A stretch of DNA of 31,137 nt from a virus (lineage: Duplodnaviria > Heunggongvirae > Uroviricota > Caudoviricetes): the IMG/VR virus record IMGVR_UViG_2565956719_000009, one strand, 5' to 3'. A model generated the notes under the pieces. That model searched no databases, was not told the DNA's origin, and saw only the letters and a program-made list of their open reading frames with translations. Position 1 is the first letter of the stretch, and the number at the start of each line of letters is the position of its first letter. The translations under genes were made by a program, and so were the position numbers. Shown here one piece after another: positions 16,789-17,038 of the stretch.

Positions 16789-16864
16789 GGCCCTTTAGCT
16801 CAGTGGTGAGAGCGAGCGACTCATAATCGCCAGGTCGCTGGTTCAAATCCAGCAAGGGCCACCA
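16789..16864 (+). tRNA. ileZ: tRNA-Ile2 (anticodon CAU, lysidine-type), ileX/ileZ-like
   Basis: GGCCCTTTAGCTCAGTGGTGAGAGCGAGCGACTCATAATCGCCAGGTCGCTGGTTCAAATCCAGCAAGGGCCACCA folds as a cloverleaf; anticodon loop CTCATAA; close to E. coli ileX as recalled. Confidence 0.85.
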
Positions 16865-16871
16865 TCACATA

Positions 16872-16948
16872 CCGCCATTAGCTCATCAGGAAAGAGCGCC
16901 AGCCTTCGAAGCTGGTTGCGCGGAGTTCGGGTCCCCGAAGGCGGTCCA
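16872..16948 (+). tRNA. tRNA-Arg-like (anticodon read as UCG)
   Basis: Cloverleaf with D-stem GCTC/GAGC, anticodon stem CCAGC/GCTGG and loop CTTCGAA, 3' CCA; one acceptor-stem mismatch and an unusual T-loop (TTCGGGT), so it may be diverged. Confidence 0.55.
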
Positions 16949-16961
16949 TTATCTGTATCCT

Positions 16962-17038
16962 GCGTTGTTAGCTCAGCCGGACAGAGCAATTGCCTTCTAA
17001 GCAATCGGTCACTGGTTCGAATCCAGTACAACGCGCCA
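16962..17038 (+). tRNA. tRNA-Arg (anticodon UCU, reads AGA)
   Basis: GCGTTGTTAGCTCAGCCGGACAGAGCAATTGCCTTCTAAGCAATCGGTCACTGGTTCGAATCCAGTACAACGCGCCA: perfect cloverleaf, anticodon loop CTTCTAA, encoded CCA. Confidence 0.85.

Follow-up and report, generated by a model that had tools for sequence, protein, structure and literature searches.

The ileZ-argN-argO tRNA cassette of a lambdoid Escherichia prophage carries an argN allele that is most likely decaying

Introduction

Are the three tRNA genes at positions 16789 to 17038 of IMG/VR virus record IMGVR_UViG_2565956719_000009 all working genes, and are they transcribed as a unit of their own or only as part of the phage late transcript? The record, called the window below (the whole stretch of DNA that was analysed, 31,137 nucleotides), is a lambdoid prophage adjoining ompW, and the three genes, ileZ, argN and argO, lie on its plus strand between the antiterminator gene Q and the lysis genes. 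The middle gene, argN, raises the first question, as a first-pass annotation made from the letters of the sequence had described it as atypical. The second question is raised by the same annotation, which placed the trio in the late leader. The overall explanation favored here, with fair confidence, is that the trio is a known and self-contained cassette in which the argN of the window is a decaying allele. The cassette is a textbook case of tRNA supply by a prophage for rare host codons, and its occurrence in this prophage adds nothing new.

Identity of the tRNA genes

The features that the argument needs first are the following.

16789-17038, plus strand: tRNA trio ileZ-argN-argO (ARAGORN)
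16789-16864, plus strand: ileZ, Ile2 (lysidine) type, anticodon CAU at 16822-16824, CCA encoded (ARAGORN, Rfam, RefSeq label)
16872-16948, plus strand: argN, tRNA-Arg, anticodon UCG at 16906-16908, degenerate allele (ARAGORN, Rfam)
16962-17038, plus strand: argO, tRNA-Arg, anticodon UCU at 16996-16998, CCA encoded, predicted AGA/AGG reader (ARAGORN; Rfam, 70.1 bits)

ARAGORN reports these three plus-strand tRNAs with CAT, TCG and TCT in the anticodon positions, and the Rfam tRNA model RF00005 (gathering score 29 bits) recovers all three above its gathering score, with 72.5 bits for ileZ, 43.4 for argN and 70.1 for argO. The corresponding E-values of 3e-14, 3e-6 and 1.5e-13 are far beyond chance. 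The cluster of Ile2-CAU, Arg-UCG and Arg-UCU genes that had been read by eye is thereby recovered at the same coordinates, and the middle gene is called with the anticodon as read. The genes are separated by spacers of 7 and 13 nucleotides, and each encodes its CCA end. Where identical DNA occurs in other genomes of E. coli, RefSeq labels the genes tRNA-Ile, tRNA-Arg and tRNA-Arg without a pseudogene flag; nearly all of these records were annotated by the Prokaryotic Genome Annotation Pipeline (PGAP).

Phages that convert their host to Shiga toxin (Stx) production, namely 933W-type phages, Stx2a_1447, Nil3 and phage 86, share with the window its gene order, its anticodons (CAU, UCG and UCU) and spacers of 7 to 9 and 13 nucleotides. 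ARAGORN gives the same anticodons for Stx2a_1447 and Nil3 as for the window, and in a three-way alignment ileZ and argO are identical among the window, Stx2a_1447 (where the genes bear these names in GenBank) and Nil3, so that all tRNA differences are confined to argN. The first-pass annotation had doubted that UCG was the proper anticodon of argN, a doubt that can be set aside since the GenBank argN of Stx2a_1447 and the tRNA-Arg in the middle of the Nil3 trio have UCG too. Its proposal that the cluster occupies the ileZ-argN-argO site of Stx-type phages held up, as the trio lies between Q and the lysis genes and its region is homologous to Stx2 phages. Judged by its sequence, the trio is the known ileZ-argN-argO cassette of Stx-type lambdoid prophages of Escherichia, and thousands of E. 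coli genomes already have it annotated. The 1999 genome paper on 933W reportedly contains the original description of the cluster; literature searches on ileZ, argN and argO and on 933W tRNA genes and rare codons returned no usable account, two comparative papers on Stx phages make no mention of the tRNAs, and the historical attribution is based on GenBank gene names.

ARAGORN labels ileZ as a tRNA-Met because it reads the unmodified anticodon only. The body of the molecule is of the Ile2 type rather than that of a tRNA-Met, given its CAU anticodon, the C4-G69 and C5-G68 pairs and its likeness to the host tRNA-Ile2 encoded by ileX and ileY. The two agree at 68 of 76 positions, among them those two pairs and all of the anticodon loop; at pair 6-67 the change is compensatory (U-A against C-G). 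A tRNA-Ile2 of the ileX/ileY type was found in 5,424 of 5,426 genomes, where RefSeq labels it tRNA-Ile. The T-loop of ileZ, TTCAAAT, belongs to a canonical T-arm. ileZ is predicted to read AUA, with C34 presumably converted to lysidine by the host enzyme TilS. Unlike its host counterpart it is prophage-borne in a three-gene cassette, and where ileX has a G27·U43 pair, ileZ has an A27·C43 mismatch (16815/16831) at the top of the anticodon stem. Over 200 copies of ileZ carry the mismatch with essentially no variation, which suggests that it is tolerated or selected. The exact ileZ core was restricted to representative genomes of Escherichia and Shigella, together with two metagenome-assembled records labelled otherwise.

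The third gene, argO, has a canonical T-arm with the T-loop TTCGAAT. Its D-loop, AGCCGGACA, contains A20, which together with the anticodon UCU provides the identity elements for arginyl-tRNA synthetase (ArgRS).

Structure and defects of argN

The argN of the window reads CCGCCAT-TA-GCTC-ATCAGGAAA-GAGC-G-CCAGC-CTTCGAA-GCTGG-TTGCG-CGGAG-TTCGGGT-CCCCG-AAGGCGG-T-CCA when divided into its arms. The acceptor-stem mismatch and the T-loop TTCGGGT that had been noticed in the first reading were both confirmed by direct reading of the sequence. The mismatch is A6·A67 (16877/16939) within the acceptor stem CCGCCAT/AAGGCGG, and in the T-loop (16926-16932) a G at 16930 replaces the near-universal A58. A third defect, not listed in that first reading, lies in the T-stem, where A52 and C62 (16924/16934) form a mismatch. 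The T-arm departs from the canonical form (T54-T55-C56-R57-A58) with G53-C61 still paired. The ArgRS identity elements are present in the form of A20 in the D-loop ATCAGGAAA, C35 and G36. The molecule has a CCA end, and its discriminator base is U73, a feature of the argN family that sets it apart from host Arg tRNAs, in which this base is A or G.

Comparison with the argN of Stx2a_1447 separates the harmless changes from the others. The two genes are identical at 70 of 77 positions. Four of the seven differences fall at tolerated loop positions (17, 20a, 44 and 60), and the remaining three, U67A, G52A and A58G, damage the structure. The Stx2a_1447 gene forms a perfect cloverleaf with the acceptor stem CCGCCAT/ATGGCGG and the T-arm CGGGG-TTCGAGC-CCCCG. 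The minimum free energy (MFE) of the window allele is -27.0 kcal/mol versus -36.0 kcal/mol for the canonical allele, and two acceptor pairs are lost in the MFE fold. The folding z-score of the window allele is -0.45, which is no better than that of shuffled sequence. The suggestion that the middle gene is a diverged or non-canonical tRNA was half right: the gene is atypical, but as a mutated allele of a canonical tRNA gene and not as a novel kind of non-canonical tRNA.

The Rfam scores of argN alleles from related loci place the window allele on a gradient of damage.

Intact argN alleles: 55-58 bits
argN with G58 only: 54.0 bits
Nil3 argN (A52·C62): 50.4 bits
Window argN allele: 43.4 bits
Window argN allele plus C32U: 42.9 bits
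argN class with C1·A72 and C2·A71: 26.4 bits (below the gathering score)
80-nucleotide argN class (anticodon arm replaced): no match
66-nucleotide argN class (deletion): no match

At those same loci ileZ scores 72.5 bits throughout and argO 66-73 bits.

Variation of argN among related prophages

Three scans of IMG/VR viral contigs were made in which up to 120 matches were listed each, and the counts given here are among the matches listed. The first scan, anchored on both ileZ and argO, yielded 119 clusters by a design that favors conservation of these two genes. The scans were repeated with the argN anticodon arm as the anchor, and with ileZ alone, to remove this bias. With both flanks anchored, nucleotide diversity (pi) was 0.003 for ileZ and 0.05 for argO (each in its unconstrained part) and 0.184 for argN, compared with 0.12-0.17 for the spacers, and ARAGORN missed the middle gene in 38 of the 119 clusters. 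When the argN anticodon arm served as anchor, pi was 0.008 for ileZ and reached 0.10 for argO, the latter because some prophages have a truncated or mutated argO. The ileZ-anchored scan, with 76 clusters, allowed both downstream positions to be classified.

argN position: intact UCG cloverleaf, 24; UCG with at least one disruptive change, 22; arm altered, or gene deleted, replaced or absent, 30
argO position: intact, 50; disrupted, 12; altered, deleted, replaced or absent, 14

The order of constraint is ileZ, argO and then argN, with argN well behind. Counts of polymorphic columns had also been made and were set aside, as a few truncated or misaligned copies of argO and ileZ distorted them; pi and the tallies were used instead.

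The kinds of change found in argN are also informative. Variation among 46 distinct 77-nucleotide alleles consists of G·U wobbles or outright mismatches, and no compensatory double change was found among them, a null result that supports neither view since the divergence is too shallow. Variants of the intact class differ nearly always at tolerated positions (17, 20a, 44, 47, 57 and 60) or by forming G·U pairs, and a few of the rarer alleles of this class have one mismatch. Derivatives of the window class gain further damage, in the form of C32U, G10U, G50A and a change of CCA to UCA. This pattern is what would be expected if some phages hold a canonical argN that works under constraint and the lineage of the window allele has been released from it.

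The window allele itself is not a one-off lesion. At 99% identity or more it occurs in 230 complete E. coli genome records, and the exact allele was found in none of 50,697 phage records. This distribution fits a resident lineage of chromosomal prophages, but it may also reflect the choice of phages for sequencing.

Two further classes of pseudo-tRNA are common at the argN position, both missed by ARAGORN and Rfam and both with intact ileZ and argO beside them. In the 80-nucleotide class (L107, L082 and L058) the anticodon arm is replaced by a hairpin of 7 base pairs with a 3-nucleotide loop, and the T-loop is altered. The 66-nucleotide class (L048 and L012) carries a deletion.

Codon usage and decoding demand

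All three tRNAs had been taken to read codons that are rare in E. coli. Codon usage in 27 genes of the window was compared with that in 42 host core genes from strain CE10, and the ratios of prophage to host core usage were as follows.

AGA: 9.2-fold
AGG: 8.1-fold
CGG: 3.7-fold
AUA: 2.5-fold
CGA: 1.6-fold

The expectation holds for the outer two genes, as AUA, AGA and AGG are enriched, but CGA is barely so. The middle gene had in addition been linked to AGG-class codons. The codons read with a UCG anticodon are CGA and probably CGG, but not AGG, which falls to argO with its UCU. The toxin genes stx2AB, which neighbor the cassette in Stx2 phages, contain 36.8 AUA codons per 1000 (about 12-fold), 14.7 AGA and only 4.9 CGA. 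Since AGA, AGG and AUA are strongly over-represented in the prophage genes and in stx2AB, ileZ and argO match a real demand, and they would supply decoding of AUA and of AGA/AGG, respectively. The host decodes CGA with a tRNA that has an ICG anticodon and CGG with a CCG tRNA. With little excess demand for CGA, and with host tRNAs that already decode both codons, argN (reading CGA and perhaps CGG) would be a dispensable member of the cassette. The unequal constraint on the three genes (ileZ frozen, argO mostly kept, argN often broken) matches the codons that the prophage over-uses.

Usage also differs along the prophage. Genes located before 15130 contain, per 1000 codons, 12.2 AGA, 8.7 AGG, 9.1 AUA and 7.3 CGA, compared with 3.5, 3.8, 5.7 and 3.1 in genes after 15300. 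For CGA, the value of 3.1 in the genes downstream of Q is close to that of the host (3.2). A comparison of late phage genes with the host had been proposed; it turned out that rare codons are commoner in the early than in the late genes, the reverse of the prediction from an idea of tRNAs for late genes. That the early and regulatory genes are richer in rare codons argues against a role of the cassette that is confined to late genes.

Functional state of the window argN

Based on its sequence, the argN of the window is most likely a decaying allele that is poorly functional or non-functional and is heading toward a pseudogene. It carries three damaging changes, its position in the cassette has a pi of 0.18 that is similar to that of the spacers, and 24 of 76 copies at this position are intact. 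The allele would have arisen by A58G, G52A and U67A, and its lineage would continue to gain damage. Its likeness to tRNA pseudogenes extends to the lost T-loop base, the uncompensated mismatches, the spacer-like diversity and the sister alleles that are deleted or have lost an arm. It differs from them in that it is still above the thresholds for tRNA detection and has kept its anticodon arm and CCA end. Loss of function, like the transcription, processing, modification and charging of the trio, is here inferred from sequence.

Alternatively, the argN of the window could still yield a tRNA-Arg(UCG) of full function, one in which the mismatches and G58 are tolerated and which supplements decoding of CGA and CGG for the prophage genes. 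This is possible but rather unlikely. Several observations weigh against decay and in favor of this alternative. The allele exceeds the Rfam gathering score, is called by ARAGORN and is labelled a tRNA by RefSeq with no pseudogene flag. Its D-arm and anticodon arm are preserved, and so are the identity elements for ArgRS (A20, C35 and G36), the G53-C61 pair and the CCA end. Some real tRNAs tolerate single stem mismatches. Some demand for the tRNA could exist, as CGG, which UCG perhaps reads, is enriched 3.7-fold in prophage genes. E. coli genomes often carry the allele (the 230 records described above). Moreover, the IMG/VR sample contains many related prophages, and the high diversity of argN is partly due to recombination between old allele classes rather than to fresh mutation. 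On the other side, a working argN would have to bear at once the loss of A58, an A·C mismatch right beside G53-C61 and, in the acceptor stem, an A·A mismatch, with no compensation for them among the alleles, shallow as their divergence is. Relative to intact alleles its score is lower by 12-15 bits and its fold weaker by 9 kcal/mol, more damage has accrued in its descendants, its position evolves at spacer-like rates, and the demand for CGA is near the host level. Decay of the window argN accounts better for this combination. One practical outcome is that annotation pipelines report damaged copies of argN as ordinary tRNA-Arg genes.

Transcription of the cassette

Two candidate signals for transcription flank the trio.

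16751-16779, plus strand: putative sigma-70 promoter, -35 TTGCAG at 16751-16756, 17-nucleotide spacer, -10 TATTAT at 16774-16779
17053-17078, plus strand: intrinsic terminator, stem GGCTCGC/GCGGGCT, loop TTTT, eight T (terminator scan)

The promoter-like element ends 9 nucleotides upstream of ileZ, and the -10 is followed by a GC-rich discriminator, TCTGCTCCC, that ends 1 nucleotide before the 5' end of ileZ. Across 213 homologous clusters, the -35 is TTGNNN in 194 and the -10 is TATTAT in 192 at fixed positions. The motif is kept across 37 distinct far-upstream contexts, some of which have a terminator directly before it, and with 19 distinct spacer sequences. The terminator hairpin is conserved as well, with the loop variants TTTT, TTCG, TACG and TTTG, and what follows it downstream varies from cluster to cluster. 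Homology to the Stx2 phage stops at 17076, just past the hairpin. Because the promoter and terminator motifs are kept across varied flanks, the trio looks like an autonomous cassette, that is, a self-contained unit of promoter, payload and terminator as far as sequence can tell; in silico, both a promoter-like element and a terminator are present. A point that tells against such a unit is that the element matches the consensus at 8 of 12 positions, which is just under the threshold of the promoter scan, so that the promoter is proposed from consensus and conservation.

The arrangement resembles that of a phage moron, which is an extra gene with its own promoter and terminator inside the late operon. 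As in a moron, a promoter, a payload and a terminator are found between Q and the lysis genes, and the motifs are conserved where the flanks vary. The payload of the window differs in that it consists of tRNAs rather than a protein gene, and autonomous transcription is here a prediction. The trio would be transcribed as one precursor that is processed by host RNase P and 3' nucleases. In the lysogen, the promoter of the cassette itself would drive expression, and since the cassette lies in the region controlled by Q, induction should add Q-dependent read-through that boosts its expression. Given its own conserved promoter-like and terminator elements, the trio may be expressed in the lysogen to the benefit of host or virulence genes and not just of late phage genes.

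It is also conceivable, though doubtful, that the tRNAs lack a dedicated promoter and are made only after induction, simply as a segment of the late transcript that depends on Q. The trio does lie downstream of Q and its strong terminator and upstream of the holin gene, with many terminators in between, and in Nil3 an annotated tR' precedes the tRNAs. Against this stand the TTGNNN-17 nucleotide-TATTAT motif that is fixed before ileZ in about 90% of the 213 clusters regardless of what lies upstream, as well as the terminator after argO, and a tRNA supply confined to the late phase does not fit the stronger enrichment of rare codons in early and regulatory than in late genes. The placement of the trio in the late leader is correct as to position, but the leader alone does not account for a cassette with its own conserved promoter-like element and terminator.

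Lability of the second position in the cassette

A four-tRNA cassette with a related second gene was found in S. flexneri and E. coli (L224, 7238-7547; L225, 1247-1556; L228, 7651-7960; L230, 7668-7977). It consists of ileZ, encoding Ile(CAU), followed by Arg(UCU) or an apparent Lys(UUU) with C33, Thr(UGU) and Gly(UCC).

The second tRNA of this cassette is clearly homologous to argN but bears a different anticodon, which suggests, from sequence comparison, that switching of the anticodon or decay has occurred there. The second position is evidently the labile position of the cassette. A bolder proposal would be that the window argN still functions with G58 and two mismatches and, more broadly, that the second position is a hotspot of anticodon change (UCG, UCU and UUU) or death while its neighbors are frozen. 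We regard this proposal as improbable; if true, the position would offer a compact natural model of how tRNA genes on mobile elements arise, are retargeted and die. Diversification of the second position for another role (an anticodon-nuclease decoy or resistant substitute, anticodon switching, or a processing element for maturation of the flanking tRNAs) is very unlikely, for although homologues with UCU or an apparent UUU occur in the Ile-X-Thr-Gly cassette, one variant within the trio itself has changed from UCG to UCU, and the common 80-nucleotide derivative keeps the tRNA shape with acceptor, D and T-like stems, the anticodon arm, T-loop or acceptor pairing is lost in unrelated ways that, with the deletions, fit relaxed constraint, no covariation for an alternative structure is seen among the 46 alleles (of shallow divergence), and clusters without the second gene still keep ileZ, argO or both.

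Prophage setting

The prophage is about 97.5% identical to a prophage of strain CE10. The 411 bases around the trio are 100% identical to many ExPEC (extraintestinal pathogenic E. coli) chromosomes, including those of NU14, ATCC 11775 and MS7163, and the tRNA region was matched in 3,061 of 5,426 complete E. coli genomes. It is about 92-94% identical to 289 phage records, most of which are Stx2-converting phages. The features surrounding the trio are listed here.

14438-15127: Q antiterminator, Gifsy-1/PPompW type (PF06323)
15199-15211 plus a T-run (nine T): strong terminator just 3' of Q
15342-15539: small open reading frame
15690-16739: N6/N4 DNA methyltransferase
17114-17304: STnc100 small RNA, copy 1 (Rfam)
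17582-17791: STnc100 small RNA, copy 2 (Rfam)
18014-18241: truncated nanS-p
18510-18725: holin
18982-20195, minus strand: IS3 element
20731-21264: lysozyme

The flanks that are shared with the Stx-phage cluster consist of the DNA methyltransferase gene upstream and the terminator, STnc100 and nanS-p downstream. The Q of the window, of the Gifsy-1/PPompW type, is unlike that of the Stx phages. In Stx2 phages ileZ-argN-argO lies just upstream of stx2A, whereas the window has no stx operon. The 1.3 kilobases that hold stx2AB are replaced in the window by about 0.5 kilobases with an extra copy of STnc100, and homology to the Stx2 phage resumes at the second STnc100 copy, past the missing stx2AB. 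The window is in effect a toxin-less counterpart of the stx site.

The tandem STnc100 copies score 136 and 161 bits, and each has its own terminator at its end. Copy 2 aligns to the single copy that is located downstream of stx2B in Stx2a_1447; copy 1 and a terminator at 17487-17510 occupy the place of stx2AB. STnc100 was also considered as the leader of the late promoter PR', a notion that was neither adopted nor rejected.

No convincing pair of -35 and -10 elements for PR' was found in a search after Q, and consequently the late-leader position of the trio is based on gene order rather than on a mapped promoter. Directly 3' of the Q stop codon, 15140-15221 contains an A/T-rich stretch with TATAAA followed by the terminator at 15199-15211 and its nine T. 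This is probably the PR'/tR' region for this type of Q.

Open reading frames overlapping the trio (16843-17088 on the minus strand and 16916-17197 on the plus strand) were treated as spurious.

The prophage lacks stx and looks partly degraded, given the IS3-family element in the lysis region, the truncation of nanS-p and a cut gene. The IS3-family element carries an ALIL frameshift pseudoknot (19798-19914). The nanS-p esterase gene is reduced to its first 75 or so codons, and the gene that is cut is YdfR-like (18730-18942).

A second tRNA-related function of the prophage is encoded at 11520-12185, a QueH-type epoxyqueuosine reductase for the queuosine modification of tRNA. The early region contains a hok/sok type I toxin-antitoxin system (hokD with the sok RNA, 12253-12428 and 12423-12578) and the small RNA DicF (4537-4588, minus strand).

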